Origin: Nitrospirota bacterium
GTDB lineage: Bacteria; Nitrospinota_A; UBA7883
Assembly: GCA_024275315.1 (NCBI GenBank)
Contig: JAJRZK010000049.1
Span: 74,577 to 138,576, forward strand
Direction of reading: 5' to 3'
DNA: 64,000 bases
Part shown: piece after piece, positions 2,272 to 54,267 of the stretch
How the letters are laid out: each line of letters begins with the position of its first letter
Numbering within the stretch: position 1 is the first letter of the stretch
Notes under the pieces: generated by a model
What the model was told of the DNA's origin: nothing
What the model saw: only the letters and a program-made list of their open reading frames with translations
The model's database searches: none
Made by a program: the position numbers and the translations under genes

Positions 2272-3405
2272 CTATCGATCCCGCCCCGCGCCAGACCAGC
2301 TGGCCAGGCGTTCACATATCTCGTCAAGATCAAGCGATTCATTCACGACACCGGCTTTCAGGGCGGAAGCGGGCATTCCGCCCACCACGCACGTTTCCGG
2401 ATCCTGCGCCAGCACCGGAAAACCCTTTGTGGCGAAATCCTTCGCCCCTTTGGAGCCGTCATCCCCCATCCCGGTCATGATTATCGCCACGGGGCTCAAA
2501 GCGACCGATGCGGACGTGGTGAACAAGAGATCCACCGATGGTTTGTAGGGCGTTTTCTGTCCCTCGTGGACTTTCAGTACCAGCTCTTCATCCTTGTTGC
2601 GCACCACACCGCTGTTTTTTCCCCCCGGCGCGATGACCACCATGCCTGGCTTCAACACCATCCCATCGCTTCCCTCCAGCACGTTCAGCCCGGTTTTTCT
2701 GTTGAGATGGTAGGCCAGGCTCGCCGTGAATCTGGCTGGCATGTGCTGGGCTATCACCATGGGGCAGGGCAATTCCCCGGTCGACGTCAGAAAGTCGGAC
2801 ATCACCGACGGCCCCCCGGTCGAAACGCCTATCACCACCAGATCGACCGGCGTAACGGGGGTAACCTTTTCCATGGCCGGCCTGCCCGTGTCTGGCGCGG
2901 CGCCTTGCGTCGCGGCAATAAAACCCTCTGAACCGGCGCCGGACGGGATATCCGCGTGATCGCGCCTCTTTTTCTTTTCCAGCGAAAGCCGGTGCTGGAC
3001 AAATGGTAGCGAGTTTTTGCCCCAGAAATGTACTTTGGTCAATATCTCGTTGTTGACGCGGAGCAGTTCGAACTTCGCCATGGAATTTTTCTTGGAGATA
3101 AAATCAACCGCTCCGTGCTCCAGCGCCTGTATGGTGGAGGAGCTTTCCTCCTGGGTATAGTTGCTGACCATGATGATGGGAGTCGGAAACCGGGCCATGA
3201 TCTCGCGTGTGGCCTGTATGCCATCCATGTTCGGCATCTCCACGTCCATGGTTACCACGTCCGGCCTGTTTTTTTCCATGATTTTCAACGCCGCCTGGCC
3301 GTCCTCGGCTTCGCCGATCACTTCTATCTCCGGATCGGTCTCGACGATCGACCTGATGGTAAAACGGAAAAAGAGCGAATCATCTACTATGAGAAGCTTT
3401 ATCAT
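2272..3405 (-). CDS. cheB: Chemotaxis response regulator protein-glutamate methylesterase CheB
   Basis: N-terminal receiver ('LLIVDDS...VVTMDVEMPNMDG'). C-terminal methylesterase ('VVIGVSTGGP', 'HMPARFT', 'GGMPASA'). Confidence 0.9.
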   Translation of the reverse strand: MIKLLIVDDSLFFRFTIRSIVETDPEIEVIGEAEDGQAALKIMEKNRPDVVTMDVEMPNMDGIQATREIMARFPTPIIMVSNYTQEESSSTIQALEHGAVDFISKKNSMAKFELLRVNNEILTKVHFWGKNSLPFVQHRLSLEKKKRRDHADIPSGAGSEGFIAATQGAAPDTGRPAMEKVTPVTPVDLVVIGVSTGGPSVMSDFLTSTGELPCPMVIAQHMPARFTASLAYHLNRKTGLNVLEGSDGMVLKPGMVVIAPGGKNSGVVRNKDEELVLKVHEGQKTPYKPSVDLLFTTSASVALSPVAIIMTGMGDDGSKGAKDFATKGFPVLAQDPETCVVGGMPASALKAGVVNESLDLDEICERLASWSGAGRDR

Positions 3406-3484: not shown

Positions 3485-6400
3485 TCATATCCACGCCGAT
3501 TTTTTTATGGCCTCGAGCAGGTCCTCCGCGTCGAGCTTGAGCAGAAACTGGTCCACACCGGCTTCTAAGGCCTGGGACACATACTCCTCCTGGGCGTAAT
3601 TGGTCAGCATTATCACCGGTAGCGAAGGATGTATGCGCTTGACTATCCTGGTGAATTCGCATCCGTCTATACGCGGCATTTCCAGGTCGGTGACGACCAG
3701 GTCCACACCATTTACAAGCCCCAGCCCCTCTTCGCCATCCTCCGCCTGGGTCACGTTGTAGCCGGCTTCGGTCAGAATGCGGCATATCATGTCACGCTGA
3801 GTCTGGGAATCGTCTACCACCAGTATGTTGTTGATGGTCCTGGCGTTCGTCTGCAACCTTGTTTCGGGCTTGATGGAGTATGTTTTTGTTTTGTTTTTTT
3901 CCGCGGCGGACGCAAAAACCTGGTCTGTGGAAAACAACAGCGTCACACGATTGTTGATTATAAGAGCCTCGTCCAGCGCCAGCTTGCCGGTGGCCCGTTC
4001 CAGCGCGGATTTTTCCACCTTGACAAGGCCACTCAGCTCGTTAACGATCAGCCCCGCCTTCCGCCCATCCTTTGTCAGGACGATAACGTACACTTTCTCC
4101 AGGTACGGAGGGGACTCGAAACCGGTTATGTACGGAGCCTTGGTTACAGGCAGGATTTCGTCGCCGTACTTGATCACATCCTGGGCGCCCACGTTTTCGA
4201 TCTGGTTTATGTTGATGATGCTGAGCTTGTTGATCCCCTTGAGGGCCATTCCGTATTGCTCCACCTGTCCGTCGCTTAGCAACAGCACCAGTTCCTCGTT
4301 GAAAACGCTCGTATCGACCCTCATCCTATCGGCGGTTTCAGAGTCTATGAGTTTGGCGACATTTATAATTTCGGTCACGTCCAGGATCAGCGCGATGGAT
4401 CCGTCTCCGAGTATGGTGGCGCCAGATATGTATTTCGCGTTGTAAATTCCCTGGAGCGAATCCAGCGGCTTGATCAGCACTTCCTCCTGGCCGAGCGTCC
4501 TGTCCACCACCAGGCCCACCTGTTTTATCCCGATCTTCACCACCACGATATCGAGCTGGTTCGATTCGTCGATGATGATAACCTCGCTTTCCAGGTTAAG
4601 CAGCTTGTTCATGAAAATGACCGGGAGTATCTCGTCTCTCAAACGCACGACCGGAACACCGCTGACCCATTCGATGCCCGATAGTGGCAACCGGACGGTT
4701 TCCATAACCGAAAACAGGGGTATGGCCAGCCTTTCCTCCTCCACCTGGCACAAAAGCGTCTGCATGATGGCCAGGGTCAGCGGGATGCGTATCTTTATCC
4801 TGGTCCCCTTTCCCGGTTGCGATTCAATATCTATCTGGCCCTTGAGGTTTTCTATGTTGGTCTTGACCACATCCATCCCCACACCGCGTCCTGAAACGTC
4901 GGACACCTCCTCCGCGGTGGAAAACCCGGGCAGGAATATCAGGGAAAGTTTCTCGGCGGGGCTGAGGGCCTCCACGGCTTCCGCGGTCAACAGCTTTTTC
5001 TCGATCACTTTGGTTGCGATGACATACTGGTCTATCCCTTTGCCGTCGTCTATGATCTCTATGATGATCGAGTTGCCCTCCTGGAACGCGTTTAAGTGTA
5101 TGGAACCGCGCCGCGGTTTGCCCGCGGTGACCCGGTCGTCGGGGAACTCTATTCCATGATCCACGCAATTGCGGATGATATGCATCAGCGGATCGGAAAT
5201 GGATTCTATCAGGTTCTTGTCCAGCTCCGTCTCGGAACCGCTGATGATGAGGTCCGCCTCCTTGCCCAGCGCTCTGCAAAGGTCGCGGACCACACGGTTG
5301 AACTTGCTGAAAATGTTGCCCACAGGCAACATCCTGGTGCTCATCACGGCCCCCTGCAGGCTACCGGTCACCATGTCGAGCTGGCTGGCCAGGTTGTTGA
5401 AGTCCTCGATGAGCTGCTCTGTTTTCTCCTCGTTTACCAGTTGGTGATTAAGCTGGTTGTACCGGTTCCGGAGAAGGACAAGCTCTCCCACCGAGTTCAT
5501 CAGATCGTCCAGCCGGGAGACGTTCACCCGGATTGTGTTTATTTTCTCCTTTGCGTGCTGGATGGACGGAGGCGTGTTCCCGACACGTTTATCGCCCGGC
5601 TTGCTTCCCGGTTGCGGCTCTACGACTCCTCCGTGCCGGGCGGACTGGATAGCCTCCAGGGCCATCATCAGCGAGCTTGTGTCTATATCTCCCTCGTTAT
5701 ACGTGGTCTTGAGGTTCTTGTTAAAAGCTCTCAGGGTGTCGTTTACCTCAAGACACGTGTCCAGAAGCTCTCTTGGAACAGGGGTTTTCGTCTCACGGTA
5801 ATATGACAGGGCCGATTCGGTGGAGTGGCAAAGAGCGCCGAGCTTTTTGAAACCCAGCGCGTTGGACATCCCTTTCATATTATGGATCTGCCGGAAACAG
5901 TTGTTTATCTCGTCCATCAGCCCCGGGTCGGCTTCCAGCTTCAGCAACGACAGCTCTATAACGTCGATATGCTCTCCAAACTCCTGCAGGAAATCAGGCA
6001 TGTACATATCGAGCATATGTTTGCGTTCCTCGTCCATCTCCTCCGTGGCGGGCGAGGGGGCGCTCTCGGGTTTGAGCTGTTCCCGGGCGGCGGCGAGCCT
6101 CGACACCAGGTTTTTTATGTTGATATTTTCATCGCTGGATTTGTCGGTGAGGCTGGAGTTGAACTCCCGAAGAAGATCGTTGAACTCGAACAGCAGGTCC
6201 AGCGTCTCCACCGGAGCCGGGATGGCTTGTGATCTTATCTCCGACAAAACAGACTCAACCCCGTGGCACAGATCCTCCAGCTTGGCCAGGCCGAGCGAGT
6301 TGGATATCCCTTTCATGTTGTGCGTGAGACGAAAAATGGAGTTTATCTCATCCTGGTTCGACGGCTCCTTTTCCAGCGATAACAGAGCGGCGTCTATGGT

Positions 6401-7126
6401 GTCGATATTTTCGCCCAGCTCCTGGACGAAAACGGCGATATGACCTGCTATGTCTTTTGGTTTTTCCTTCGGCTCCGGCGGGGGGGGTGGTGTTTTCGAG
6501 TCCAGAAGGATCGCAAGTTTCGTGTCGAACGGGACGGTGTCTATGGTTTCGTCGCATGTCGGGTCCATGATCTGGTTGCGCACATAGTCCATGCAGTTGT
6601 CGAACCCTTGCAGTGTGTCGATCAGCTCGATGGACACGTCCCGGTCGCTAACCTCGTAGATGGCCGATTCCAGAGATTTGCAAAGAGCCGCAAGCCTGGG
6701 CATGCCGGTTTTTTCCGCCTGCTCGCCCACCGCCTGGCAATAGGCGAGGCACGCGCCAAGCTCTCCTTTGGCGCCGGGGTTGTCCTTGAGTTTCGCAAAA
6801 GATGCGCTGAACAACTCCGCCTTGGCCGTAATTTCGTCCGTGTATTTTTTTTGCGCTTCCGGTTCCAGGGCTGGTTTTTCCTCTACGGGTCCGGGGTTGC
6901 TCTTGGGGGTGTCTAAGTCGGCGGCGGTTTCCTGCGGTGAGGGCCCGCCCTGCGTGTCCGGCTCTGGCTGTTCCGGGGAAACGTCGTGTGACTTGGTGAA
7001 AAACTGCCCCAGGATCTGCTCGTCGGTGCTGAACGGATTTTCAAACAGGGGCTTTCTTGGCTTCTTCGCCGATTTGGCCCGTTTGCGTTTTTTGCCCGGG
7101 ACCGGCTTTTTTTCTTTATTCGCCAT
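3485..7126 (-). CDS. cheA: Hybrid CheA-type histidine kinase: Lys-rich N-terminus, 2 Hpt domains, dimerisation + HATPase_c, 2 CheW-like domains, C-terminal receiver (ChpA/FrzE-like)
   Basis: Two 'HNMKG' Hpt motifs. 'GRGVGMDVV' lies in an H-box-less CheA catalytic core. Tandem CheW-like regions follow. C-terminal 'ILVVDDS...LVVTDLEMPRIDG'. Its start overlaps the upstream parA-like stop by 11 nt. Confidence 0.9.
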   Translation of the reverse strand: MANKEKKPVPGKKRKRAKSAKKPRKPLFENPFSTDEQILGQFFTKSHDVSPEQPEPDTQGGPSPQETAADLDTPKSNPGPVEEKPALEPEAQKKYTDEITAKAELFSASFAKLKDNPGAKGELGACLAYCQAVGEQAEKTGMPRLAALCKSLESAIYEVSDRDVSIELIDTLQGFDNCMDYVRNQIMDPTCDETIDTVPFDTKLAILLDSKTPPPPPEPKEKPKDIAGHIAVFVQELGENIDTIDAALLSLEKEPSNQDEINSIFRLTHNMKGISNSLGLAKLEDLCHGVESVLSEIRSQAIPAPVETLDLLFEFNDLLREFNSSLTDKSSDENINIKNLVSRLAAAREQLKPESAPSPATEEMDEERKHMLDMYMPDFLQEFGEHIDVIELSLLKLEADPGLMDEINNCFRQIHNMKGMSNALGFKKLGALCHSTESALSYYRETKTPVPRELLDTCLEVNDTLRAFNKNLKTTYNEGDIDTSSLMMALEAIQSARHGGVVEPQPGSKPGDKRVGNTPPSIQHAKEKINTIRVNVSRLDDLMNSVGELVLLRNRYNQLNHQLVNEEKTEQLIEDFNNLASQLDMVTGSLQGAVMSTRMLPVGNIFSKFNRVVRDLCRALGKEADLIISGSETELDKNLIESISDPLMHIIRNCVDHGIEFPDDRVTAGKPRRGSIHLNAFQEGNSIIIEIIDDGKGIDQYVIATKVIEKKLLTAEAVEALSPAEKLSLIFLPGFSTAEEVSDVSGRGVGMDVVKTNIENLKGQIDIESQPGKGTRIKIRIPLTLAIMQTLLCQVEEERLAIPLFSVMETVRLPLSGIEWVSGVPVVRLRDEILPVIFMNKLLNLESEVIIIDESNQLDIVVVKIGIKQVGLVVDRTLGQEEVLIKPLDSLQGIYNAKYISGATILGDGSIALILDVTEIINVAKLIDSETADRMRVDTSVFNEELVLLLSDGQVEQYGMALKGINKLSIININQIENVGAQDVIKYGDEILPVTKAPYITGFESPPYLEKVYVIVLTKDGRKAGLIVNELSGLVKVEKSALERATGKLALDEALIINNRVTLLFSTDQVFASAAEKNKTKTYSIKPETRLQTNARTINNILVVDDSQTQRDMICRILTEAGYNVTQAEDGEEGLGLVNGVDLVVTDLEMPRIDGCEFTRIVKRIHPSLPVIMLTNYAQEEYVSQALEAGVDQFLLKLDAEDLLEAIKKSAWI

Positions 7127-7856
7127 TTAGCACTTTCCGCACTATCTTGTCATAATCCTCCGCGCCATACGATTTTGGCGCATATGTGAAAATATCCTGA
7201 TGAGCCCCGACCGCTTCGGACAGCTTTACATTTTTTCTTACCGGGTTGGATACGTTTTGACCGAAACGGCTGTTGAGACTTTCAAGCACTTCCTGGCTTT
7301 TTCTGTCCCGTTTATCGTAAAACGTGGGGATAATCATCCCGATTTTCAGTTTATGCCCCATCCTGGACTGAATCCATTCCAGGTTGTCGATCACTTCCCT
7401 GGCTCCGATCAACGAAAAATAATCCATCGCCACGGGAACAAAAGCCTCGTCGGCGTATAACATGGCGTTCAGGTTGAGCAGGTTCAGCGACGGAGCGCAA
7501 TCCAGGATCACGTAGTCCATGCCGTCGAGATTTTTCATGGCCCTGATCAGGATTTTCTCACGGTCGTTCCGGGTCGCCATGAAAATCTCCGCCTGGGCCA
7601 GTGTCTTGTTGCTGGGGATCAGCCAGAGATTGTCATCTATCGGATACAGACATCTATCGAGATCGATGTTTTCCACCAGAAGATGAAACAGATTATGGCT
7701 GAACCTCAGGTTGTACCAGATCCCCAGACCTCCCTGGGGGTCCATGTCGATAAGCAGTACTTTTTTGTTGTGGCGGCGCAGGCCAGACGCTATGGTCGCC
7801 GACGTGGTCGTCTTTCCCGTTCCGCCTTTCTGGTTGATCACGACTATTTTACGCAT
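7116..7856 (-). CDS. ParA/MinD-family ATPase embedded in the chemosensory operon (ParC/PpfA-like)
   Basis: Deviant Walker A 'NQKGGTGKTT'. 246 aa. Sits between cheW and cheA with overlapping stop/start. Confidence 0.85.
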   Translation of the reverse strand: MRKIVVINQKGGTGKTTTSATIASGLRRHNKKVLLIDMDPQGGLGIWYNLRFSHNLFHLLVENIDLDRCLYPIDDNLWLIPSNKTLAQAEIFMATRNDREKILIRAMKNLDGMDYVILDCAPSLNLLNLNAMLYADEAFVPVAMDYFSLIGAREVIDNLEWIQSRMGHKLKIGMIIPTFYDKRDRKSQEVLESLNSRFGQNVSNPVRKNVKLSEAVGAHQDIFTYAPKSYGAEDYDKIVRKVLNGE

Positions 7857-7869
7857 TCTGGCGCCATCT

Positions 7870-8337
7870 TCACGCAGGTTGCGCTTCCTGGCCCGGCTCG
7901 GCGGATTCCTGCGGATCCCGGATCAGGTTTTTTATGTCGATAAGAACCACGAGCGAATCCAGACCCTTGTAGACACCAAGTATATGTTTGGGGTCGATGA
8001 TGGTTGTTTCCGACCGCATGGGGTCGATGCTGTCGGCCGGAATTTCCATGACGGTCGATAACGAGTCCACCTGGACGCCGATTTTTTTTGTCTCGTCGAG
8101 TTTGCAGATTATTATCCTGGATTCGTCGCTGTCCTCGGACATGGACAGGTTCAGCTTCGCCCGCAAATCGATAAGGGGCACGATCAGGCCGCGCAAATTG
8201 ATGATGCCTTTCAGGAATTTCGGAGCGTTGGGGATTATGGTGATACGAAATTCCGACAGAAATATGATCTCCTGGACGACCAGGACATCTATGCCGAAAA
8301 GCTCGTTGCTTATATAAAAATTGATATATTTTGGCAT
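7870..8337 (-). CDS. cheW: Chemotaxis coupling protein CheW
   Basis: 155 aa. Typical CheW core 'LFGIDVLVVQEI..........IINLRG'. Confidence 0.9.
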   Translation of the reverse strand: MPKYINFYISNELFGIDVLVVQEIIFLSEFRITIIPNAPKFLKGIINLRGLIVPLIDLRAKLNLSMSEDSDESRIIICKLDETKKIGVQVDSLSTVMEIPADSIDPMRSETTIIDPKHILGVYKGLDSLVVLIDIKNLIRDPQESAEPGQEAQPA

Positions 8338-8768: not shown

Positions 8769-9910
8769 ATGCGATTCATGACCGGCAAAGCCGTCGCTTG
8801 TGCCATTGCCATAGCGCTGGTTATCATAACATCACCCGTTCCCGCCGCTTCCAGCATGACCAACGAGGAGATGGAGAAGAAAATCCAGGCGCTCGAGGAG
8901 AAAATAGAGGAACTCGAGGCGAATTCCGAAATAAACTCCGCCATCGGCGACGACCTGGAAACCCGGCTTGACAACCTGGTGAGAATTTCCGGCTACCTGG
9001 CCGTGGAATATATCGCCACCGACAAAAAGATGATGTCAGCAGGTTCCGGATTCATCATCTGTCGCTCTTTTTCGACCGGGACCTGACCGACAAGTGGAAA
9101 ATCTTTTCCGAAATCGAGTATGAAGACGCCCCGTACATAGAGTATTCCACCTCCAAAGAAACAATAAACGGCGAAGGCAAGATACTGGTGGAACAGGCGT
9201 ACACGGACTTTACCGCCGACCAGAAGCTTAACGTCCGCGCGGGCCGGTTTCTCACTCCCGCGGGGATATGGTTGATACACCACTATCCACCCTTTGTTCC
9301 GACCCAGGCGCGGCCACAACATATCAGGAAGATTTTTCCGCAATACACGGACGGCGTCTCCGTTTTCGGCGATTTTAACATGGACACCAACCTGCTGTAT
9401 TACAACCTGTATTACGGTAACGGGGAGGGTAACCAGGGGCATGGAGACGGGAACCAGGACAAGGCTGTTGGTGGTCGTCTTCAGTTCATTGCAAACGGCC
9501 CGTTTGAGCTTAAGGCAGGCGCGTCGGGCTATACAGACACGCTGAACAACGGCACGGGAAAAACATCGATCGGGGCCGACCTGGCTTTCAGGTACGCTGG
9601 GATGAAGTTTCAATCGGAATACGCCATCGGCGATTATGATCCCGCGGAGGGAAACACATACAGGTCCATCGGCTATTACGCCCAGGTGCAATACTCTATC
9701 GGCAGACACACCATATTTTACCGGTACGATTTCTACGAGCCAAGTGACCAGGCGGACCTCGACCAGGTCACCGTCAATACCGGCGGGATGAACTATCATT
9801 GGACTCCCACGGTTGTCTCCAAGATAGAGATCAACTCCTACGCCCACGAAAGCGGTTCTTCTGCAGAGGACTATGTCGAGTGGATATTGAGTTCCGCGAT
9901 TTTCTTCTGA
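8769..9910 (+). pseudogene. Outer-membrane porin-like gene (signal peptide, coiled coil, beta-barrel; OprO/P-like or DcaP-like). It is split by a +1/-2 frameshift near 9021-9050.
   Basis: ORFs 8769-9086 (frame 0) and 9188-9910 (frame 2) are contiguous when read across the A5 run 'gacaaaaag' (9021-9029): '...VEYIATDKK|DDVSRFRIHHLSLFFDRDLTDKWKIFSEIEYEDAPY...MEQAYTDF...'. The product is rich in aromatic and beta-strand residues and ends in F. Confidence 0.5.
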
Positions 9911-9922: not shown

Positions 9923-10396
9923 ATGTTTGATATGGGGAAATTTATGGTTTCATTCAGATCGTTGGCCCTCCTGGCGGTAGCGGTTAATGTTTCCATTGCG
10001 CTATCGGCGAACACCGCGTTTTCAGAAACGATAGCGATAATAGTCAACCGCGACAACCCTGTGGAAAGCGTCACCGAGCAGGACCTGAAGAAATTTTATT
10101 CCGATATTTCCGTAAAGTGGTCCACCGGTGAGCGGGTAAAAATATACGATCTTCCCATCAACAACGAGGCCAGGAAAATATTTTCGGCGAAAATTCTGCA
10201 AAGAAGCCCTGAGGATGTGACTATGGAATGGGCGAATAAAAGAATAACCAACACAGCCAAAAATCCTCCCAATACCCTCAAATCCCAGGTGCTGATGCAA
10301 TCGAAGGTGGCGTCGGAAAAGGGGGGGCTCGGATATATGTTCGCCGACAAGGTTAACCACAAGAAAGTAAAAGTCGTCCTTACTATCAAAGAGTAG
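9923..10396 (+). CDS. Small secreted PstS/PBP-like (phosphate/phosphonate-binding-like) domain protein
   Basis: Signal peptide. 'IAIIVNRDNPV...L...F' pattern of periplasmic binding-domain proteins that often sit next to MCP/GGDEF sensors. Confidence 0.5.
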   Translation: MFDMGKFMVSFRSLALLAVAVNVSIALSANTAFSETIAIIVNRDNPVESVTEQDLKKFYSDISVKWSTGERVKIYDLPINNEARKIFSAKILQRSPEDVTMEWANKRITNTAKNPPNTLKSQVLMQSKVASEKGGLGYMFADKVNHKKVKVVLTIKE

Positions 10397-10432
10397 GTGG
10401 GCCTTGTCCGGTTTTCATTCTCGTCAGGGGCT

Positions 10433-11986
10433 ATGAAATTTAATATTTTAGGCAGAATCAGGATCAGGGCAAGGCTGATTATCGGCCTTGGCATACTGGT
10501 TTTGATGCTTGTTTACACCGGTGTGATGTGGCGCATCGCCTCGAAAAATATCATCAAGGGGCTTTACGACATCAGCGAAGTCCACTATCCACTCGCCGAA
10601 GCCAGCATGGAAATGCAAATGGCCATAATCCAGGTCCAGCAGTATTTCACCGATTTGTCCCTGAGCGGCGCGAAAAAGGATGAAAAAGAGGCTAACCGGT
10701 GGAAAGATCATTTCACGAAATACGCCCTTAAGGCCAGTGAAATCGCCGTAAACGACAAGATGAAAAAACAGATAGCCGACATCATGAATGATTTTGACAA
10801 ATATTTCAAAATGGCTGATGTCATGTCCAAGATTTACGCCGCCGAAGAGGACGAGGCGGGGTCGAGCATCAAAGTGGACGTGGACGCGTTTGTCGAGATC
10901 CTTCGCGGCAAGATCAACAACATTGTCAACATGACCAAGGCGAACATGATTGTGACCCTCGGGGAGACAAAGCGCATCACCAACACCACCGCCACCAGCA
11001 ACAACCTGCTTACCCTGATGATGTCGGTTATATCGATCGTCCTGGCGCTGATGCTGGCCAACTCCATCACCAGCCCCATCAACGACATAATTGTCAGGCT
11101 CAGGGCCATTGCCGAAGAGAGCGTCGCGGACCTGTCCAAAAGCATCAACGTGGAATCCAACGACGAGATTTCCGAGGTGGGTCAACTGTTCAACCAGTTC
11201 GTGGGAAAGATAAGGGCGCTTATAATACGGCTTGCCGATATGGCCGAGCACCTGGCCTCCGCCACGACGGAGCTTTCCGCCACGACAGAGCAGTTTTCGG
11301 GTCAGGCCAGGAGCCAGGCGGACCAGGTAAACCACATCACCCGCGACATAGAAGAGGTGAACAAGGCCGTGGCCAACATAGCCAGCAGGGCTGTGGACGT
11401 GGCTCGCACCTCCACGGAAACCCACGAGCTGGCTCTTGACGGCGGCAAAGTCATAAACAACAGTTCCGACGCTATAAAAAAGCTTTCGGACTATTCTTCC
11501 AAGATAGGCAACATTCTCCTTGTGATAGAGGACATAGCGAAAAAGACCGACCTGCTGGCGATCAACGCGGCCATCGAAGCCGCCAACGCTGGTGACCAGG
11601 GCAAAGGGTTTGCCGTGGTGGCCGAAGAGGTGAGAAAGCTGGCGGAGCGCACGACGCGGTCCATCGGCGAAATCAGCCGCATGATACAGGACATCCAGAC
11701 GTTCACGTCGGAAGCCGTCGATTCCATGAAGCACTCCAGCCAGGTGATGAGCAAGATCATTATCGAAGCCACGCAGGTCAACCAGATGATAGACGAGATC
11801 GCCGCGTCCACCGAGAAACAATCGGGGATAACCAACGGCATGTTGAAAAACGTGAGGTCTGTCCACGAGCTGAGCCAGGGGTTCGCTGAGCAGGCGGAAC
11901 AGTCCGAACAGGTCGCCAACGAGATTAACAACCAGTCGCTGAAACTGCAAAATGTCGTGGATGAGTTCAACGTTAATTCCAGGTAG
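10433..11986 (+). CDS. Methyl-accepting chemotaxis protein (2 TM, periplasmic helical sensor, HAMP, MCP signalling domain)
   Basis: ATG at 10433 is preceded by AGGGGC (the track's GTG at 10397 is an alternative). Conserved 'LLAINAAIEAANAGDQGKGFAVVAEEVRKLAERT'. Confidence 0.85.
   Translation: MKFNILGRIRIRARLIIGLGILVLMLVYTGVMWRIASKNIIKGLYDISEVHYPLAEASMEMQMAIIQVQQYFTDLSLSGAKKDEKEANRWKDHFTKYALKASEIAVNDKMKKQIADIMNDFDKYFKMADVMSKIYAAEEDEAGSSIKVDVDAFVEILRGKINNIVNMTKANMIVTLGETKRITNTTATSNNLLTLMMSVISIVLALMLANSITSPINDIIVRLRAIAEESVADLSKSINVESNDEISEVGQLFNQFVGKIRALIIRLADMAEHLASATTELSATTEQFSGQARSQADQVNHITRDIEEVNKAVANIASRAVDVARTSTETHELALDGGKVINNSSDAIKKLSDYSSKIGNILLVIEDIAKKTDLLAINAAIEAANAGDQGKGFAVVAEEVRKLAERTTRSIGEISRMIQDIQTFTSEAVDSMKHSSQVMSKIIIEATQVNQMIDEIAASTEKQSGITNGMLKNVRSVHELSQGFAEQAEQSEQVANEINNQSLKLQNVVDEFNVNSR
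11240..11950 (+). repeat. Copy 1 of an about 0.7-kb near-identical duplicated segment (MCP signalling domain)
   Basis: Nucleotide-level near-identity with 12880-13585, e.g. 'gccgagcacctggcctccgccacgacggagctttccgccacgacagagcagttttc'. Confidence 0.8.
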
Positions 11987-12077: not shown

Positions 12078-13793
12078 ATGGCCGGAAAACTGCACTTCTC
12101 AAAATCACTGAAATTCAGGCTCCTGGTCCTGATAGGCCTGCTTTTTACACTATTTTCCATCTTCAACATGTACATCGCCGTATCCGACCAGAGACAGCAG
12201 GCGCTGAAACAGGCCCGAACAATTTCCGAGAGCGCCGCCAACGCCATGCTTAACGCTTTGAACATTATGATGATCCAGGACACCATCGCCCAGCGGAAAC
12301 AGTTTTTGCGGATGATGAAAGACAACCTCGGTTTCGACGAGATCAGGGTTTTCAGGAGTGAATCGGTCACAAGGCAATATGGTCCCGGGCTTGAAGGTGA
12401 ACAACCGGTGAACAGCGCCGAAAAAGAAGTGCTTGAAAACGGGAAACCAAGGTTCGATGTCATCAAAACCCCGCAAGGCAGGAAATTCCGCGCGATGGTC
12501 CCTTTCCTGATGGTCAAGGACAGGTCCGGCGTCAACTGTCTGGATTGTCATGACGGAAAAGTCGGCACCGTAAACGGCGGTGTGAGCATCCTGATGGGCA
12601 TGAAAGAGATAGACGCCGCGCTTTTCACCAACCTCACCGAGCTTGTCATCATCAATCTGCTGGGGCTGGTGGCTCTTCTGGCGAGTATATTGTTCATCCA
12701 GCAAAAGCTGGTTCTCGGTCCCCTGTCCACCATGCGCGAAACCATGGAGTCCGTGGAGCGCGACTCCGACCTGCGCAGGAGTATCGAGATTAAGTCTGAT
12801 AACGAAGTGGGCATGATGTCGAGCGCGTTTAACAAGATGATGCAAAAATTCCAGGCCATCATCGGCCAGATGGCCAGAACAGCCGAGCACCTGGCCTCCG
12901 CCACGACGGAGCTTTCCGCCACGACAGAGCAGTTTTCAAGCCAGGCCAGGAGCCAGGCGGACCAGGTAAACCACATCACCCGCGATATAGAAGAGGTGAA
13001 CAAGGCCGTGGCCAACATAGCTCAAAGCACCGTGGATGTGGCTCGCACCTCCACGCAAACCCACGAGCTGGCCCTCGACGGCGGCAAAGTCATAAACAAC
13101 AGTTCCTACGCCATAAAAAAGCTTTCGGACTATTCCTCCAAGATAGGCAATATCCTTCTCGTGGTGGAGGACATAGCGAAAAAGACCGACCTGCTGGCGA
13201 TCAACGCGGCCATCGAAGCCGCCAACGCTGGTGAACAGGGCAAAGGTTTCGCCGTGGTGGCCGAGGAGGTGAGAAAGCTGGCGGAGCGCACGACGCGGTC
13301 CATCGGCGAAATCAGCCGCATGATACAGGACATCCGGTCGTTCACGTCGGAAGCTGTCGATTCCATGAAGCATTCCAGTGAAGTCATGAACAAGATCATT
13401 CTTGAAACGACCAGGGTCAACGAAATGGTGGACGGGATAGCGACCTCCACCGACAAGCAATCGGGAATAACCAGCGGCATGCTGGCGAAAGTAAGATCGG
13501 TCCACGAGCTGAGCCAGGGGTTCGCCGCGCAGGCGGAACAGTCCGAACAGGTCGCCAACGAGATTAACGACCAGTCGCTGAAACTTCAGGAATGGGTCGA
13601 CCAGTTCCACATAGACTACAAATCGTACGGCGACCCGTCCGACGGGGGCGGCCTGTCCGACGGGGGCGGCCCGTCCGACGGGGGCGGCCTGTCCGACGGG
13701 GGCGGCCTGTCCGACGGGGGCGGCCTGTCCGCTGGGGGCGGCCCGCCCGACGACAGGAAAATCGACGAGATGGACCAACCCTGGACGAGATGA
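12078..13793 (+). CDS. Methyl-accepting chemotaxis protein with periplasmic CXXCH (c-type heme) sensor domain and a C-terminal (SDGGGL)n repeat tail
   Basis: TM1 'FRLLVLIGLLFTLFSIF'. Periplasmic 'GVNCLDCHDG'. TM2, HAMP, and a signalling domain about 95% identical to the upstream MCP. C-terminus 'DGGGLSDGGGPSDGGGLSDGGGLSDGGGLSAGGGPPDD'. Confidence 0.85.
   Translation: MAGKLHFSKSLKFRLLVLIGLLFTLFSIFNMYIAVSDQRQQALKQARTISESAANAMLNALNIMMIQDTIAQRKQFLRMMKDNLGFDEIRVFRSESVTRQYGPGLEGEQPVNSAEKEVLENGKPRFDVIKTPQGRKFRAMVPFLMVKDRSGVNCLDCHDGKVGTVNGGVSILMGMKEIDAALFTNLTELVIINLLGLVALLASILFIQQKLVLGPLSTMRETMESVERDSDLRRSIEIKSDNEVGMMSSAFNKMMQKFQAIIGQMARTAEHLASATTELSATTEQFSSQARSQADQVNHITRDIEEVNKAVANIAQSTVDVARTSTQTHELALDGGKVINNSSYAIKKLSDYSSKIGNILLVVEDIAKKTDLLAINAAIEAANAGEQGKGFAVVAEEVRKLAERTTRSIGEISRMIQDIRSFTSEAVDSMKHSSEVMNKIILETTRVNEMVDGIATSTDKQSGITSGMLAKVRSVHELSQGFAAQAEQSEQVANEINDQSLKLQEWVDQFHIDYKSYGDPSDGGGLSDGGGPSDGGGLSDGGGLSDGGGLSAGGGPPDDRKIDEMDQPWTR
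12880..13585 (+). repeat. Copy 2 of the duplicated MCP signalling-domain segment
   Basis: See copy 1. Only scattered substitutions. Confidence 0.8.
13632..13752 (+). repeat. 18-bp tandem repeat (about 6.5 copies) encoding the (S/P)DGGGL tail of the MCP
   Basis: 'ccgtccgacgggggcggc' / 'ctgtccgacgggggcggc' units are visible directly in the sequence. Confidence 0.85.
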
Positions 13794-18116: not shown

Positions 18117-18311
18117 ACGCGACCACTCAGGATATATCTGTTAATCAGCCTCCTAGCCTAACGCAAAAAAAGGGCTATTAAAACGAAAAATTCTCTCTTT
18201 ATACGCACACCGGTCACGCCTGAAATGTGCATGCCGAAAAAATAAAAAAAACATCCATAAAGCCTCCGGCCGCGGCGGAATTGATGTAGAATTGAAAACG
18301 TCGGTTTTAAC

Positions 18312-18660
18312 TATCGCCCTCGCGACTCGGGTGTCGCCCTCGCGACTCGGGTGTCGCCCTCGCGACTCGGGTGTCGCCCTCGCGACTCGGGTGTCGCCCT
18401 CGCGACTTGGGTGCCACACTCGCGACTTGGGTGCCACACTCGCGACTTGGGTGCCACACTCGCGACTTGGGTGTCACACTCGCGACTTGGGTGTCACACT
18501 CGCGACTTGGGTGCCACACTCGCGACTTGGGTGCCACACTCGCGACTCGGGTGTCGCCCTCGCGACTCGGGTGTCGCCCTCGCGACTCGGGTGTCGCCCT
18601 CGCGACTTGGGTGTCGCCCTCGCGACTTGGGTGTCGCCCTCGCGACTTGGGTGTCGTCGG
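18312..18660. repeat. GC-rich 20-bp minisatellite, about 17 copies, with block-ordered unit variants, upstream of a diheme cytochrome c gene
   Basis: Perfect 20-nt register. Units A 'cgcgactcgggtgtcgccct' x4, B 'cgcgacttgggtgccacact' x3, C 'cgcgacttgggtgtcacact' x2, B x2, A x3, D 'cgcgacttgggtgtcgccct' x2, then a degenerate unit. Confidence 0.9.
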
Positions 18661-18720
18661 GTTTGCTTTATGGACGCGCCATCGAAATATCCGGCTGTAG
18701 CCCTGAATCATGGTCAGATA

Positions 18721-19638
18721 ATGGCAGTATATGTTTTGTCACGCGTAAAGGTGAGCGGTACGAACTCGCGCCGTTCCAACGCCGCTTCAAGACCGTTTTC
18801 GCCGGTCACGGTTGCGTGCCTTGTTTTGGTAATGGCGTTATTATCCATCCCCTGCGGATCGTTTGCCACGCCCGGTTCTGTGGAGAACGGCGCCGCGCTT
18901 TACATGGTGCATTGCGTCCAGTGTCACGGGCCCGGGGGCAAAGGCGATGGAACAGCGGCCCAATACCTGCCAAGGCGGCCAAGGGATTTTACCGAAGGGT
19001 TGTACAAGATAAAAACAAGCCCGCCGACAACCATGCTCTCCAGGGACGAGGATATTTATTATTCGATAACGAAAGGCATGTCAATAGCCGGAATGCCGCC
19101 GTGGGAAAAAGTTCTCACTGACAAACAAAGGTGGGACCTGGTGGCGTATTTAAAATCCCTTTCGGATTTGTACGACGATGAGCCCAACCCGGAGCCGCTC
19201 GATTTGGGCGGGCGGATTCCACCTTCACCGGACAGTGTAAAACGGGGCAACCGGGCCTATTTCAAGCTGCTTTGCCATGAATGCCATGGTGAGACGGGAC
19301 AGGGACCATCCATTAAAAAGCTCAGGGATGATTACGGCGACAGGATTTGGCCCCGGGACCTGACCAGGACCGACACCTTCATCGGTCCTGCTACACCCGA
19401 TGCGATTTACACCCGCATAACCAACGGCATCCCGCTGACGCCGATGCCTGCACATGTAAAAAACCCGAATAACGATCAGCTCGAGGATCTTAGGTGGGAT
19501 ATAGCCAACTATATAGTCTGGCGGGCCGCTGAAGCGCAGAAACTGAGGAGGGAGAGGATGTTGAAAATCGTGGGCGCGTCCTTGGTTATCCTGGGCGCCG
19601 GCATGATATTCTTTCGGCGCCGTAACGCCAGGGCATAA
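18721..19638 (+). CDS. Diheme c-type cytochrome (class I, c4/CcoP-like) with signal peptide and C-terminal TM anchor
   Basis: 'CVQCHG' and 'CHECHG' heme-binding sites. Hydrophobic 'VACLVLVMALLSIP' near the N-terminus. C-terminal 'LKIVGASLVILGAGMIFF'. The start is uncertain; the track ORF reads through the repeat from 18292. Confidence 0.6.
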   Translation: MAVYVLSRVKVSGTNSRRSNAASRPFSPVTVACLVLVMALLSIPCGSFATPGSVENGAALYMVHCVQCHGPGGKGDGTAAQYLPRRPRDFTEGLYKIKTSPPTTMLSRDEDIYYSITKGMSIAGMPPWEKVLTDKQRWDLVAYLKSLSDLYDDEPNPEPLDLGGRIPPSPDSVKRGNRAYFKLLCHECHGETGQGPSIKKLRDDYGDRIWPRDLTRTDTFIGPATPDAIYTRITNGIPLTPMPAHVKNPNNDQLEDLRWDIANYIVWRAAEAQKLRRERMLKIVGASLVILGAGMIFFRRRNARA

Positions 19639-20402: not shown

Positions 20403-21023
20403 ATGGTGAGGGAAATGGATCAGGCAGTATCCGGCAAGGCCGGCCCGCAGGAAGTCGAGGGGGCCGACGTCTCACGGCCCGGACGGCTCAACCATCTTGT
20501 CTATCTCGCCGCCGCCGGTATATTGCTTACGGCGATATTCAATCATTCCGTGGAATCCAGGAACGTGAAAACTCTCAAGGCGGGAGATTCCATGCCTTCT
20601 TTCTCGCTTGCGCTGACTGACGGGCGAAAGGTTTCTCAAGCCGATTTTACGGGAAGCCCCACCATATATTTTTTCTATGCGAACTGGTGTCCATGCTCCC
20701 ACCTGTCGGTCGACTGGATAAAAAAAGCGTTCGAGGACCACAAGGCCGAAGGGCTCAAGGTGTTGAGCGTCGGTGTGCAGGATTCTTCCGATAAGCTGAA
20801 GGATTTTGCGATGAAACACGAGCTCCCCTTTCCGGCGTGCGCGGTCGGGGGGGACGATGTGGCCGCCAGTGTCGGGGTGTCTATTACGCCCACCACCGTT
20901 TTTGTGGACAGCGAGGGTGTTATAAAATCGGTTTACGTTGGCAAGATAGAAAAATATGAACAGATCAGCGGGGGGTTGACCAGCATTTTGTCCGACGGCG
21001 TCGGCGCCTCTGGCTCGGCGTAG
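20403..21023 (+). CDS. TlpA/ResA-like periplasmic thiol:disulfide oxidoreductase with atypical 'WCPCS' (CXC) active site
   Basis: Thioredoxin-fold pattern 'IYFFYANWCPCS...VLSVGV...PFPA...D...V...V..TPTTVFVDSEGVI'. N-terminal TM anchor. Confidence 0.65.
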   Translation: MVREMDQAVSGKAGPQEVEGADVSRPGRLNHLVYLAAAGILLTAIFNHSVESRNVKTLKAGDSMPSFSLALTDGRKVSQADFTGSPTIYFFYANWCPCSHLSVDWIKKAFEDHKAEGLKVLSVGVQDSSDKLKDFAMKHELPFPACAVGGDDVAASVGVSITPTTVFVDSEGVIKSVYVGKIEKYEQISGGLTSILSDGVGASGSA

Positions 21024-21042
21024 TGTTCACGCACATGTAGTT

Positions 21043-21816
21043 ATGTCGATAATCGAAGCTTATTTCGGGGGGTTGGCGGCCTTTTTCTCCATCTGGATAT
21101 TCTGCATGATGCAGGTTATCCCTTTTCTGCTGGCGTACATGGTCGGGGCCACCCTCATAGGTTCCGCCTCCGGCAAAGAGCGGATAACCCTGTTTCTCAC
21201 GTCTGGCGCGCTGGTTTTCGTCGGATTCGCCGTTGTGTTCGTGGCCCTCGGCACACCCACCACCAGCCTTAGCAAATTCCTGTTCAGACACCAGGGGTTG
21301 CTCAACCAGTTCGGTGGAGTGATCGGCGGGATGGCCGGACTTTACCTTGCCGGTATCCTGACAATCGACCGGACGGCCGGCTCTTTTAAAGTCATCAGGC
21401 CGCTGGCGGAACTCCTGGTTGGCGCTGCCGTCGCGCTGGCGTATAAGCCCTGTGTGACACCCATTCTAACGAAAATATATAACCTGTCAGGCGTGGCCGA
21501 GACCGCCGGTTTCGGCGGATTGCTGATCCTGTTTTACACAATGGGGATGTTTACCGCCATCTACGCTCTGGCCGCTGTCATACTTTGGGCTGTATCGGCC
21601 AAACCTTCGGCCATGATACAGACAGGGATGATAAAAATATGCGGAGCCGCGCTTCTGGCGTTCGCTTTCCTCGTTCTGAGCGGTAGCATGACAAGCTACA
21701 AGAGCTTTCTTGTGGGAAGGTTCGTGCCGCAACAGCCGGGCCATGTACACAGCGACGGCTCCATGGGGGGAGCCGCTATGGATCATTCCGGTCACATGGA
21801 TATGGATACAAAATGA
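21043..21816 (+). CDS. ccdA: CcdA/DsbD-family cytochrome c biogenesis thiol-disulfide transporter with His/Met-rich C-terminal tail
   Basis: Six TM helices. Conserved Cys in TM1 ('IWIFCMMQVIPF') and TM4 ('YKPCVTPIL'). Tail 'HVHSDGSMGGAAMDHSGHMDMD'. Confidence 0.7.
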   Translation: MSIIEAYFGGLAAFFSIWIFCMMQVIPFLLAYMVGATLIGSASGKERITLFLTSGALVFVGFAVVFVALGTPTTSLSKFLFRHQGLLNQFGGVIGGMAGLYLAGILTIDRTAGSFKVIRPLAELLVGAAVALAYKPCVTPILTKIYNLSGVAETAGFGGLLILFYTMGMFTAIYALAAVILWAVSAKPSAMIQTGMIKICGAALLAFAFLVLSGSMTSYKSFLVGRFVPQQPGHVHSDGSMGGAAMDHSGHMDMDTK

Positions 21817-22715
21817 AAACCCGCACAAAACACAAAATCAGTCCACACCCGATTCTGGCGATCGCAATAGTTTTATGTTTCGCCGATATGTCCTATGGCG
21901 AAATGGACCATTCCAAGATGGGTCATTCCAAAATGGATCACTCGAAGATGGAGCGACCGGCGGACCTTGGCGGGATGAAGGAGAATATGCCGATGACGGG
22001 GGGAATAAAACCCCCAACAGGGGGAGTGAAGTCTCCGTCCGACGATGGCGGAAAGCTGGTGATAGGCCGCATGAAAGTCACCCTGATGCCGGAGTATGAC
22101 GCCCCTGCCATAATCGTCATCAAGGAAGGGAAGTTCGCCGACAGGACCGCGTTCCCCACGGAGGTCAATTTTACACTCCCCAAGGGGGTGACAAAGCTTA
22201 CCGATGTGTGCAGTCTCTCCCCCGGCGGGCATCATTTCTGCCAGCTGTTCGACATCAAGCAGGGGGATGACCGGAATTATCTGGATGTGAAGCTTCCCTT
22301 CTCCGATTTTTTCATAGACTATCAATACACCCCGTTCCAGGTAAAAGAGAATTCCATGCGGGAGTTCTCGTTCGACGTGGACACCTCCTATGACATAAAC
22401 ACGCTGGAAATCCATGTGCAACGGCCATTAAGGGCGGACAAGTTCACTATCACCCCGGCGCCGATGGAGACATATGAAAAAGACGGATTCAAATACCTGA
22501 AATACACGTATAGAAAAGTGAAATCAGGTGATTTGAGACAGGTGACGGTTTCGTATTTCAAAAAAGGCGCGGCTCCGTCTGTGGAGAAAAAGTTCTCTGC
22601 GATGAAATCGCCGGGAATGTTCGAGGGAAGCACAGGAGAGATACTGCTTGTGGTGGGAATGGTGGCGCTGGGCCTGGCTTTCTATGCCCGTCGCCGAAAA
22701 CGGGCCGGAAGATGA
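21813..22715 (+). CDS. Secreted, C-terminally TM-anchored protein with N-terminal (M/G)DHSKM x3 His/Met repeat (putative metal-binding)
   Basis: Signal peptide. 12-bp DNA repeat encoding 'MDHSKMGHSKMDHSKM'. C-terminal 'ILLVVGMVALGLAFYARRRKR'. ATGA start/stop overlap with ccdA. Confidence 0.55.
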   Translation: MKTRTKHKISPHPILAIAIVLCFADMSYGEMDHSKMGHSKMDHSKMERPADLGGMKENMPMTGGIKPPTGGVKSPSDDGGKLVIGRMKVTLMPEYDAPAIIVIKEGKFADRTAFPTEVNFTLPKGVTKLTDVCSLSPGGHHFCQLFDIKQGDDRNYLDVKLPFSDFFIDYQYTPFQVKENSMREFSFDVDTSYDINTLEIHVQRPLRADKFTITPAPMETYEKDGFKYLKYTYRKVKSGDLRQVTVSYFKKGAAPSVEKKFSAMKSPGMFEGSTGEILLVVGMVALGLAFYARRRKRAGR

Positions 22716-22721
22716 TGGTAT

Positions 22722-23165
22722 GTGCGTAAAATGAAAACGCTGGTGTTGGCAGTTTCGTTTCTGGGCGTTCTTGCGTTTATGAGCGGAAAATATATATTCA
22801 TGGTTTCCGCTCCGGACAACTCGGTCATGGGCGTATCCCATTCGCTGGCGTGTCCTTGTGAATGTCCCATGGTGCTGGAGGACTGCCACATGAGCTGTGG
22901 TCTCGAGTGGAAAGACCTGATAGGCGATAAACTTAAAGCGTCACTTACTAAAACAGATATAACAGCCTATTTTTATAAGCGTTATGGCAAGGAGGCGCTA
23001 CTTACACCCGCCCAGAGAATTTCGGGCAAATGGTATGAGATAACCCGTGGGGGATATCCGGCCAAGGACATGGTATTATTCGGCCTGATTGTGATAGTCT
23101 GGACAGCGCTGGTATATACCGGTTTGATGATGATAGTGGAGAAGTTCAAATCGCAAAAAGTATAG
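22722..23165 (+). CDS. CcmH/NrfF-like protein with unusual Cys-rich motif 'CPCECP...DCHMSC'
   Basis: Signal peptide. A Cys cluster, then 'ITAYFYKRYGKEALLTP' plus a C-terminal TM, as in CcmH ('...RYGdfVly.P' + TM). Confidence 0.5.
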   Translation: MRKMKTLVLAVSFLGVLAFMSGKYIFMVSAPDNSVMGVSHSLACPCECPMVLEDCHMSCGLEWKDLIGDKLKASLTKTDITAYFYKRYGKEALLTPAQRISGKWYEITRGGYPAKDMVLFGLIVIVWTALVYTGLMMIVEKFKSQKV

Positions 23166-25704: not shown

Positions 25705-27642
25705 ATGAGCCTGATTCAATGCGTAATAGGAACGGCGGGGCACATCGACCATGGCAAGACGAGCCTCGTAAAAGCCCTGACCGGAATCGATTGCGATCGT
25801 TTCGAAGAGGAGAAACGGCGCGGTATAACGATCGATATCGGATTCGCCAGGATGACTTTTCCCGGTGGCGGGACCGCGGGGATCGTGGATGTCCCCGGTC
25901 ATCAGCGTTTCATACACAACATGCTGGCAGGTGTCGCCGGGATAGACCTGGCGATGCTGGTGGTCGCCGCGGATGACGCGGTTATGCCCCAGACTGTAGA
26001 GCATCTTGCCATACTTGAGATTCTCGGTGTGAATCGCGGTATTGTGGTGCTGACCAAGACTGACCTGGTGGATGAAGAGACGCTAGAGCTTGCGGAGATG
26101 GAAGTGGGTGATCTTGTCGCCAATTCCCACCTGGCAGGTTCTGAAATAATAAAGTGCTCGAGTGTGACGGGGGAGGGGATCGACCGGCTGCGGGACGAGC
26201 TGGAGCGGCTCTGCTCCACGGTGGTGAACCGCAGGTCGGACCGGTTTTTCCGTATGCCCGTTGATCGTGTGTTCACCATCAAGGGGCATGGCCTGGTGGT
26301 GACGGGAACGGTGTCGAGCGGTGGAGTAAAGCCGGAGGACCGGTTGACGCTGGTCCCCGGCGGCAAGGTGGTCCGGGCTCGTCGGGTTCAAAGTCACGGG
26401 GCCAGCGTGGACCACGCCGGACCGGGTACCAGGACCGCGATAAACATAACCGGGGCGAGCAAGGGGGATATCGAGCGGGGAACGGTCATCGTTCACCACG
26501 CTATCGCTAAAACGTGTAAACAGTTCACCGCGGAAGTGGTGTGTCATTCCACTTCACCGTTAAAGATCGTCCACGGCATGTCGTATCTTTTGCATGTCCA
26601 TACCGCCGAAACCTTGTGCAGGGTCTACCTGGCCAGCCGGAAAAGCCTGGAACCGGGGAGCCGGTCCATCGCCCAGGTGCGGTTCGAGGGTTACGCGCAC
26701 ATTATCCATGGCGACAAGTTCGTCCTGCGCTCTTCTTCGGCGCGGCACACCGTCGGCGTAGGTGTTGTCGCAGAGCCAGGTGGAAAGCCGCTGGGACGCA
26801 GGCGCTTGAACGCGCTTATGGAAAAATGGAGCGCGCTCGCCGGAACTGAACTGGCGGATGGGGTCAGAGCCGTCACAAAAGAACGTCCCCTTGGGTATCC
26901 GGTTTCTTCGTTGATGGCGATGTTCAACATCATAGAGAGCAGGGTGGGGCAAATCATGAACCAGCTTTCCGGCGAAGTTTCATCATTCGAATGGAAGGGC
27001 GAAAAATACGCTTATATCACCGCGGCGGCGGACGATGTTATGGACGCTATCACGGGCGCAGTGAGAAATTTTCACAAAAAACATCCGGCTTTGCAGGGAA
27101 TAGAGGAATCGTCCCTGGCAAGCTCCGCGGCGCCTTCGCTCACGGCGGAACTGGCCGGATACTGGATACGCCGGGCGATATCGTCCAGGAGGATAGAGTG
27201 CGTCGGTTCCGCTCTGCGACTGCCAGGCCGGCAGGTGGAGTTTTCGGGGGGAAACGAGAAATTGCGCAGATCAATACTGGAAGCCTACAGGGCCGGAGGG
27301 CTGAAGTCCCCCCCAAAAACCGACAAGGTGGGGGGCATGCTGGGGATAAAAAAAAGCGAGGCCCAAAAGATGATCAGAATCCTCAACCAGACCGGAGACT
27401 TGGTCACCCTGGCTCCGGATTACACGTTGCATCGTGACACTCTTGACAGCGCGCAAAAAACGCTGGTGGAAGAGATTGAAAAGGCCGGGTTCGTGGAGAC
27501 CGCCAGGTATCGGGATTTGCTCGGAGTAGGGAGAAAGGCGGCCATAGACATTCTCGAGCATTTCGACAGGGCCGGGTTTACCATGAGAAAAAACAACAAA
27601 AGAGTTTTGGCGTCGGGCCATGATGGAGGGAAAGAAGCATGA
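25705..27642 (+). CDS. selB: Selenocysteine-specific translation elongation factor SelB
   Basis: G domain '[13 protein letters not shown]...DVPGHQRF...TKTDL'. The 645-aa length, with winged-helix C-terminal extensions, is typical of SelB. Confidence 0.88.
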
Positions 27643-54086: not shown

Positions 54087-54267
54087 GTTTAATTAAATAT
54101 TGTTATTTTCGTCACACTGTTGACGTTTATAGTGAATTAGTGTACATTAAGCGCGTAAAGGTCAACGGATCGATTCAGCGATTTAACCTTCCAAGTTCGT
54201 CGATACCCATTATAGCGGTTTTTGTGTTTTAGGTTTGTACCACAAAAATCTTTGGGGAGGACGATCA

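Follow-up and report, generated by a model that had tools for sequence, protein, structure and literature searches.

The gene at positions 12078 to 13793 (+) of a 64,000-nucleotide stretch of contig JAJRZK010000049.1 from a Nitrospinota bacterium (the whole of this stretch is here called the window) encodes a 571-aa methyl-accepting chemotaxis protein (MCP). We take it, with a probability of roughly 0.8, to be a chemoreceptor with a periplasmic single-Cache domain that carries one covalent heme c, is homologous to the sensor domains of GSU0582 and GSU0935 from Geobacter, and responds to redox state or nitric oxide (NO) by His/Met ligand switching. This kind of sensor is known, having been described in Geobacter in 2006 to 2008 and generalized as sCache_heme in 2026, and the receptor is a divergent new member of it that introduces no new principle. 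What is new here is the host lineage Nitrospinota, a branch of the sensor missed by the curated Pfam models, and a conserved context of chemotaxis (che) genes.

The receptor and its predicted heme c sensor domain

The features of the receptor gene, with the evidence for each, are as follows (AF2, AlphaFold2; TM, transmembrane; ORF, open reading frame).

12078 to 13793 (+): predicted heme c sensor MCP, full gene, 571 aa (ORF, Pfam HAMP and MCPsignal, NCBIfam alignment)
12117 to 12179 (+): TM1, an uncleaved signal anchor, aa 14–34 (hydropathy; AF2 helix 11–66)
12180 to 12632 (+): periplasmic sensor domain of the single-Cache heme c type, aa 35–185 (family profile, AF2, Foldseek)
12270 to 12272 (+): Met65 codon, predicted labile distal heme ligand (conserved in 142/148 homologs; aligned to Met60 of GSU0935)
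12537 to 12551 (+): CLDCH, aa 154–158, predicted heme c attachment cysteines and proximal His158 (translation checked)
12633 to 12698 (+): TM2, aa 186–207 (hydropathy; AF2 helix 176–212 after the last β-strand)
12708 to 12851 (+): HAMP domain, aa 211–258 (Pfam PF00672, E 1.8e-8)
12852 to 13622 (+): cytoplasmic signaling four-helix bundle, aa 259–515, 36-heptad-like (Pfam MCPsignal, NCBIfam alignment)
13629 to 13752 (+): 18-nt tandem repeat, 6.9 copies with 90% matches, encoding the (L/P)SDGGG tail (Tandem Repeats Finder, repeat search, translation)

The ORF begins at the first possible ATG. Hydropathy analysis gave exactly two TM segments, at approximately aa 14–34 and 186–207, close to the 12–35 and 190–215 proposed in an earlier reading of the DNA from its sequence alone (the original prediction), and the N terminus is positively charged. 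Because the HAMP and signaling domains must be cytoplasmic, aa 35–185 are assigned to the periplasm, and the CXXCH loop, which lies between the two TM segments with the positive N terminus before it and HAMP after TM2, is periplasmic and not cytoplasmic. MCPsignal (PF00015) was matched by Pfam at aa 324–468 (E 2.1e-33), and the signaling hairpin, LLAINAAIEAANAGEQGKGFAVVAEEVR, is conserved, so that with HAMP, the signaling module, and the hairpin the protein is an MCP. Residues 189–514 align almost without gaps to positions 196–519 of the E. coli-type MCP models of NCBIfam, a spacing that indicates a 36-heptad-like receptor. A regular-expression search of the signaling bundle returned one consensus methylation site, ATTEQFSS (aa 281–288). 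The C terminus is a flexible tail of six (L/P)SDGGG repeats, which is missing from the closest relative, P0001, a protein colinear with the receptor across 503 residues at 54% identity. A canonical C-terminal xWxxF tether for CheR/CheB was rejected, as the receptor ends in QPWTR, with the Trp present and the final Phe not.

The sensor domain contains GVNCLDCHDGKVG at aa 151–163 (from the translation), within which CLDCH occupies aa 154–158, confirming the original prediction of a CXXCH in a periplasmic loop. The whole protein has just two Cys residues, both inside CLDCH. Relatives were collected by an exhaustive HMMER search with aa 1–221 against 1.84 billion cluster representatives, which gave 687 related clusters at E ≤ 1e-3; 357 of these also passed a cut-off of 1e-10. 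A word-indexed homolog search found nothing with the single sensor sequence and 19 fragments only with the alignment, and locus searches of GTDB genomes and JGI metagenomes found no close relatives of the locus. Exactly one CXXCH is present within the first 260 aa of 147 of the 150 best homologs; of the other three, one is truncated ahead of the motif, one has CXXXCH, and one has CMKCY. In an alignment of 53 family sequences, which was used for conservation, for the family profile, and for AF2, R93, P142, C154, C157, H158, and G167 are invariant, and M65, R73, G102, G104, G151, and G163 are at least 90% conserved. The His following the second Cys is kept in all 148 homologous sequences compared, as is the full heme c signature, and a Met stands at the M65 position in 142 of the 148 (96%), four of the six exceptions reading FMK, with the Met moved by one position. 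The presence of CXXCH in 147 of 150 homologs and the invariance of C154, C157, and H158 mark it, on sequence evidence, as a conserved functional motif of a large family and not a chance occurrence. Among 98 relatives scanned for their outputs, 59 are HAMP-MCPs, 12 have GGDEF, and several have PAS domains; EAL, PilZ, HisKA, and hemerythrin were found in two each and a Ser/Thr kinase in one, and the sensor reads as a modular extracytoplasmic input domain.

Searched against the PDB, the family profile matched the solved heme c sensor domains 3B47 (GSU0582; E 4.6e-6) and 3B42 (GSU0935; E 4.7e-5). Profile positions 44–179 match chain residues 6–130, approximately 125 residues and nearly the full length, with CXXCH and the conserved Met in register. 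We rejected the possibility that the match is driven by CXXCH alone, since most of the score, about 17 of 29 bits, arises outside that segment, and the CXXCH-containing part alone gives 5–10 bits only. In a control in which the CXXCH loop and everything beyond it were removed from both profile and targets, the match scored 17.7–18.4 bits (E 0.013–0.021 in a PDB-sized search). Tll0287 (5B82) was absent from the PDB matches of the profile up to E 10, which places the receptor in the Geobacter-like branch. With the curated Pfam models, PF21563 (Mcp40H-20_sensor, threshold 27 bits) was matched at E ≤ 1 by 19 of the 53 family members (best 1.2e-7) and PF11845 (Tll0287-like) weakly by 10, and P0001 scored 20.2 bits on PF21563; by these scores, the receptor's branch grades into the curated families but falls outside their thresholds.

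The heme of GSU0935 is attached at Cys140 and Cys143, and its axial ligands are His144 (proximal) and Met60 (distal) (PMC8396549). His144 is residue 110 of the 3B42 chain (an offset of 34), and thus Met60 is chain residue 26, which is aligned to M65 of the receptor. Cys/His ligation of the Tll0287 type was ruled out, there being no third Cys in the receptor.

The AF2 model of the sensor (monomer, no heme) was unusable when built from the single sequence (predicted local distance difference test score, pLDDT, of 52), whereas with the 53-sequence alignment it reached a pLDDT of 94.6 and a predicted template modeling (pTM) score of 0.85. A continuous helix, 11–66, comprises TM1 and periplasmic α1 and is followed by helix 70–84, strand 86–93, and two short helices; strands 125–131 and 134–144, loop 145–164, and strand 165–174 come next, and this last strand runs straight into the TM2 helix, 176–212. 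CXXCH sits in loop 145–164, with a helical turn at 154–156, ahead of the last strand. In a Foldseek search of the PDB, 3B42_B ranked first (E 1.5e-6), and the next hits were the single-Cache domains from WalK, CitA, and DcuS. The structural alignment to 3B42 has approximately 17% identity and a root mean square deviation of 14 Å, a large value that is expected because the 3B42 crystal is a helix-swapped dimer and that does not test whether the receptor is swapped. As modeled, the sensor has the single-Cache fold, and the insertion that bears CXXCH, made up of a short helix and loops, precedes the last strand. The profile match to 3B47 and 3B42, the top Foldseek position of 3B42, and the alignment of M65 with Met60 bear out the proposed likeness to the heme c sensors of Geobacter chemoreceptors; the label "PAS-type" that went with it does not stand, the fold now being classed as single-Cache.

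Several observations weigh against a heme c sensor of the Geobacter kind. The profile match outside the CXXCH segment is marginal on its own, a phmmer search of the PDB with the single sensor sequence returned noise only, and of the two Pfam models PF21563 does not match the receptor at E ≤ 1, whereas PF11845 covers only aa 108–159 with 10.5–13 bits (E 0.15–0.86) against a cut-off of 24.1. The heme in the receptor is itself a prediction, and the geometry between Met65 and iron is taken from the alignment only, the AF2 model containing no heme. Even for the Geobacter receptors the natural stimulus is not settled, and a low-potential heme would stay oxidized in an oxic periplasm, which would favor NO over redox sensing.

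The mechanism that we propose follows the Geobacter domains, in which the heme pocket lies between helices and sheet and Met60 of GSU0935 ligates the reduced low-spin heme; oxidation frees this Met, and NO or CO can take its place (PMC8396549). After Sec export of the receptor, the cytochrome c maturation system would join heme to Cys154 and Cys157, with His158 as the proximal ligand. Ferrous iron would be bound by Met65, at the end of the TM1-continuous helix, and Met65 would come off on oxidation or be displaced by NO or CO. Such ligand switching would shift the TM helices, because Met65 is on the helix continuous with TM1 and the CXXCH loop is followed by the last strand, itself joined to TM2. 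The shift would in turn reset HAMP and alter the activity of the hybrid CheA encoded alongside.

The che locus and the output of the pathway

The immediate context of the receptor is a che gene cluster. P0001 is encoded in the Nitrospinaceae metagenome-assembled genome OFTM379 (GCA_029261405.1), at a locus designated L081, where its gene stands in the same position, divergent from CheW-ParA-CheA-CheB. The window's che genes and the second receptor gene are these.

1621 to 2019 (−): single-domain hemerythrin, immediately after CheB and co-directional with it (Pfam PF01814, E 3.4e-16)
2272 to 3405 (−): CheB methylesterase (Pfam; syntenic in L081)
3485 to 7126 (−): hybrid CheA, 1213 aa, with Hpt, dimerization, HATPase, CheW, and C-terminal receiver domains (Pfam; syntenic in L081)
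7116 to 7856 (−): ParA/MinD-like ATPase in the che operon (Pfam; syntenic in L081)
7870 to 8337 (−): CheW, at the head of the divergent che operon (Pfam; syntenic in L081)
10397 to 11986 (+): tandem paralog MCP1, whose sensor is unrelated and has no CXXCH (weak TarH similarity; Pfam, sequence comparison)

The conservation in OFTM379 of the position beside the che operon indicates that the heme c MCP is a conserved receptor of this pathway. In L081 the che operon extends into a GAF-MshEN-T2SSE ATPase (1–1612, −), a pilus-type motor that binds cyclic di-GMP (c-di-GMP); the place of this gene is taken in the window by the hemerythrin gene and a REC-GGDEF gene (520–1563) that is convergent with the che operon. 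The pathway may combine periplasmic heme c input with a cytoplasmic, O2- or NO-binding hemerythrin.

MCP1 and the heme MCP share 72% protein identity from TM2 onward and 85% DNA identity over 300 nt (11188–11487 versus 12827–13126). This similarity exceeds that to the ortholog (54%), and the OFTM379 locus has the heme MCP only, a pattern that suggests either a lineage-specific duplication with a sensor swap or gene conversion. Upstream of MCP1 on the + strand are ORFs 8769–9086 and 9188–9910, in different frames, the first with a signal peptide and a coiled coil and the second ending in AIFF, as outer-membrane barrels do; the two may be one split porin-like gene. Between these and MCP1, a secreted PstS/PBP-like fragment of 157 aa (E 1.6e-5) is encoded at 9923–10396 (+); the stop of its ORF adjoins the start of MCP1, and the fragment may be a binding-protein partner of MCP1.

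The sensing could be as described above while the output is an alternative chemosensory pathway (Wsp- or Tfp-like), with c-di-GMP, type IV pili, or surface behavior under its control and not flagellar chemotaxis, a possibility that we regard as less likely than not. The 1213-aa CheA is a hybrid with Hpt and a C-terminal receiver, and no separate CheY or CheR was detected with Pfam in the che cluster within the window; a REC-GGDEF gene adjoins the cluster, the L081 operon runs on into a pilus-type ATPase, and a prepilin-type gene is present at 54235–54720, all of which would suit a nonflagellar output. However, the view is of 64 kb of the genome, and CheY, CheR, and flagellar genes may be elsewhere; the genome of Nitrospina gracilis has 97 "cell motility" coding sequences, the receptor is an ordinary 36-heptad-like MCP, and ParA-like genes occur in flagellar che clusters too.

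Candidate signals at the predicted heme

By analogy with the characterized domains, the signal would most likely be periplasmic redox state and/or NO, and stable O2 binding at the heme would be less likely. We prefer redox or NO to direct O2 binding on two grounds. The signaling-fused sCache_heme from Pseudomonas azotoformans releases NO slowly and has the behavior of an NO sensor rather than that of an O2 sensor (PMC12889525), and the two Geobacter domains, with midpoint potentials of −156 and −251 mV, bind NO in both oxidation states (PMC8396549). The Geobacter domains also bind CO and change from high spin to low spin on reduction (PMC8396549). A dedicated O2 sensor, that is, an aerotaxis receptor binding O2 at the heme, is in our estimate improbable, even though the last gene of the che operon is that for hemerythrin, typically a protein that binds O2, the sensor is fused to a hemerythrin domain in 2 of the 98 relatives, and oxyclines are the habitat of Nitrospinota. 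His/Met c-hemes generally autoxidize rather than hold O2. The NO-sensor rather than O2-sensor properties of signaling-type sCache_heme (PMC12889525) likewise speak against it, as does the redox-linked Met on/off switch of the Geobacter domains, which bind NO and CO (PMC8396549).

It would be more surprising still if the heme were structural or served electron transfer and the signal were an ordinary small organic ligand, as in CitA and DcuS. The Cache fold does resemble these carboxylate sensors, and R73 (at least 90% conserved) and R93 (invariant) could in principle bind a carboxylate. However, the heme fills the pocket between helices and sheet in the solved Geobacter domains (PMC8396549), redox roles have been proposed for stand-alone members and not for signaling-fused ones (PMC12889525), and the conserved arginines would be equally explained by binding of the heme propionates. 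That CXXCH carries no heme, its Cys pair being a periplasmic thiol/disulfide or metal (Zn/Cu/Fe) switch, is scarcely credible: it could appeal to the heme being a prediction and to weak profile matches to CXXC copper-ATPase metal-binding domains (E ∼0.2), but these matches span about 36 residues and are not significant, the His after the second Cys is invariant (148/148), sequence and structure resemble domains solved with covalent heme, and the conserved Met is aligned to a known axial ligand.

Wider context and known systems

The original prediction had also pointed to co-location of the receptor with cytochrome c genes and a ccdA/ccmH-like maturation cluster. These genes are real, but they begin at least 4.5 kb downstream, and an operon joining the cytochrome and CcdA genes to the receptor was rejected: the interval contains unrelated genes on both strands, for a zinc-ribbon protein, RtcB, a DEAD-box helicase, and AlgH.

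18292 to 19638: di-heme cytochrome c
20403 to 23165 (+): thiol-reduction branch of cytochrome c maturation (TlpA/ResA-like, CcdA, His/Met-rich ORF, CcmH-like)
20403 to 21023: TlpA/ResA-like thioredoxin
21043 to 21816 (+): CcdA (phmmer versus PDB 5vkv, E 4.6e-13, aa 3–229)
22722 to 23165: CcmH-like gene (27 bits versus a cut-off of 25)
48902 to 50613: further cytochromes

The CcdA gene had no Pfam or NCBIfam match even at E ≤ 1. Its neighbors are TlpA/ResA-like thioredoxins, the His/Met-rich ORF, the CcmH-like gene, and a gene of the FGE-sulfatase family. The nearby cytochrome and CcdA/CcmH genes show that the organism makes c-type cytochromes, not that there is a functional link to the receptor. 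Among the further cytochromes, a SoxA/TsdA-like monoheme cytochrome (48902–49444) precedes a five-CXXCH multiheme cytochrome (49399–50613, +) that has a weak match to "(seleno)protein ExtKL" (E 3.3e-10, below the cut-off). Elsewhere in the window, 25705–27642 (+) is a SelB-like elongation factor gene, as judged from its N-terminal sequence only, and 39106–42516 (−) is a 1136-aa ORF of unusual architecture in which Molybdopterin and Molydop_binding domains, those of a molybdopterin oxidoreductase, are fused to a class-V aminotransferase/cysteine-desulfurase-like domain. The malate dehydrogenase encoded at 62415–63344 shares 89% identity with its counterpart in a Nitrospinota metagenome-assembled genome, and the ten matches ranked next all have the label Nitrospinota, Nitrospinaceae, or Nitrospirae, which assigns the window to a Nitrospinota bacterium.

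Periplasmic heme c sensors are among the few known bacterial means to read redox or NO outside the cytoplasm. With the receptor, the family now reaches the main marine nitrite oxidizers, which live at O2 gradients and often have the NO-forming nitrite reductase nirK, and it is a concrete candidate for NO- or redox-guided behavior in Nitrospinota. Interest in it would grow if it did guide such behavior in marine nitrite oxidizers. The curated domain models under-annotate its sensor branch. A wider proposition, which we consider unlikely as a whole, is that the heme c receptor of Nitrospinaceae is the dedicated and conserved input of the operon of CheW, ParA-like, hybrid CheA-REC, and CheB genes (with hemerythrin in the window), that it would give marine nitrite oxidizers a periplasmic NO or redox sense, and that it belongs to a branch of several hundred clusters (at 50% identity) unseen by Pfam. 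If this were true, such a sense could hold cells at oxyclines or switch surface or pilus behavior, possibly without flagella.

Among known systems, the receptor is most like GSU0582 and GSU0935, with which it shares the order TM1-periplasmic domain-TM2-HAMP-MCP, a single CXXCH in the loop that precedes the last β-strand, and a Met at the position of Met60. The host of the receptor, however, is a Nitrospinota bacterium and not a metal-reducing Geobacter, its signaling module is of the 36-heptad E. coli type, whereas the Pfam family name refers to class 40H, and it has an additional (L/P)SDGGG repeat tail and falls below the PF21563 threshold. The Geobacter heme c sensor dimer is helix-swapped in the crystal (PMC8396549), each heme lying between helices from one chain and the sheet from the other. 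The sCache_heme family, a Cache fold with an insertion of a short helix and loops that bears CXXCH before the last strand, takes in GSU0582, GSU0935, and DUF3365/Tll0287 as a modular input domain (PMC12889525). The extracytoplasmic single-Cache domain of the receptor, its CXXCH insertion, and the fusion to signaling outputs (MCP here, and MCP, GGDEF, and kinases in relatives) conform to this description. In P. azotoformans a Cache_heme-HAMP protein is the NO receptor (preprints PMC12889525 and 10.64898/2026.05.25.727664); unlike that bare HAMP protein, which is paired with a Ser/Thr kinase, the receptor has an MCP as its output.

With Tll0287 of Thermosynechococcus (5B82) and stand-alone sCache_heme proteins the receptor has in common a covalent heme c, predicted here, on a Cache-type fold. 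The second axial ligand of the Tll0287 type is Cys, in contrast to the receptor, which has no Cys outside CXXCH and is membrane-anchored and fused to a signaling output. DcrH is an MCP with a hemerythrin domain, and DcrA of Desulfovibrio vulgaris is an MCP with a periplasmic c-type heme and an additional cytoplasmic PAS domain, the latter according to PMC8396549; through heme c or hemerythrin, such chemoreceptors sense redox state or O2. The occurrence of a predicted heme c MCP and a hemerythrin gene in one che locus recalls this pair, the likeness to DcrA being by description and not by sequence, although the hemerythrin in the window is, unlike that of DcrH, a separate, unfused protein. CitA, DcuS, and WalK place the same core fold between two TM helices. 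A single-Cache domain in this position implies piston-type coupling to TM2. These sensors differ from the receptor in having no CXXCH insertion, and they bind small ligands or partners in place of the heme predicted here.

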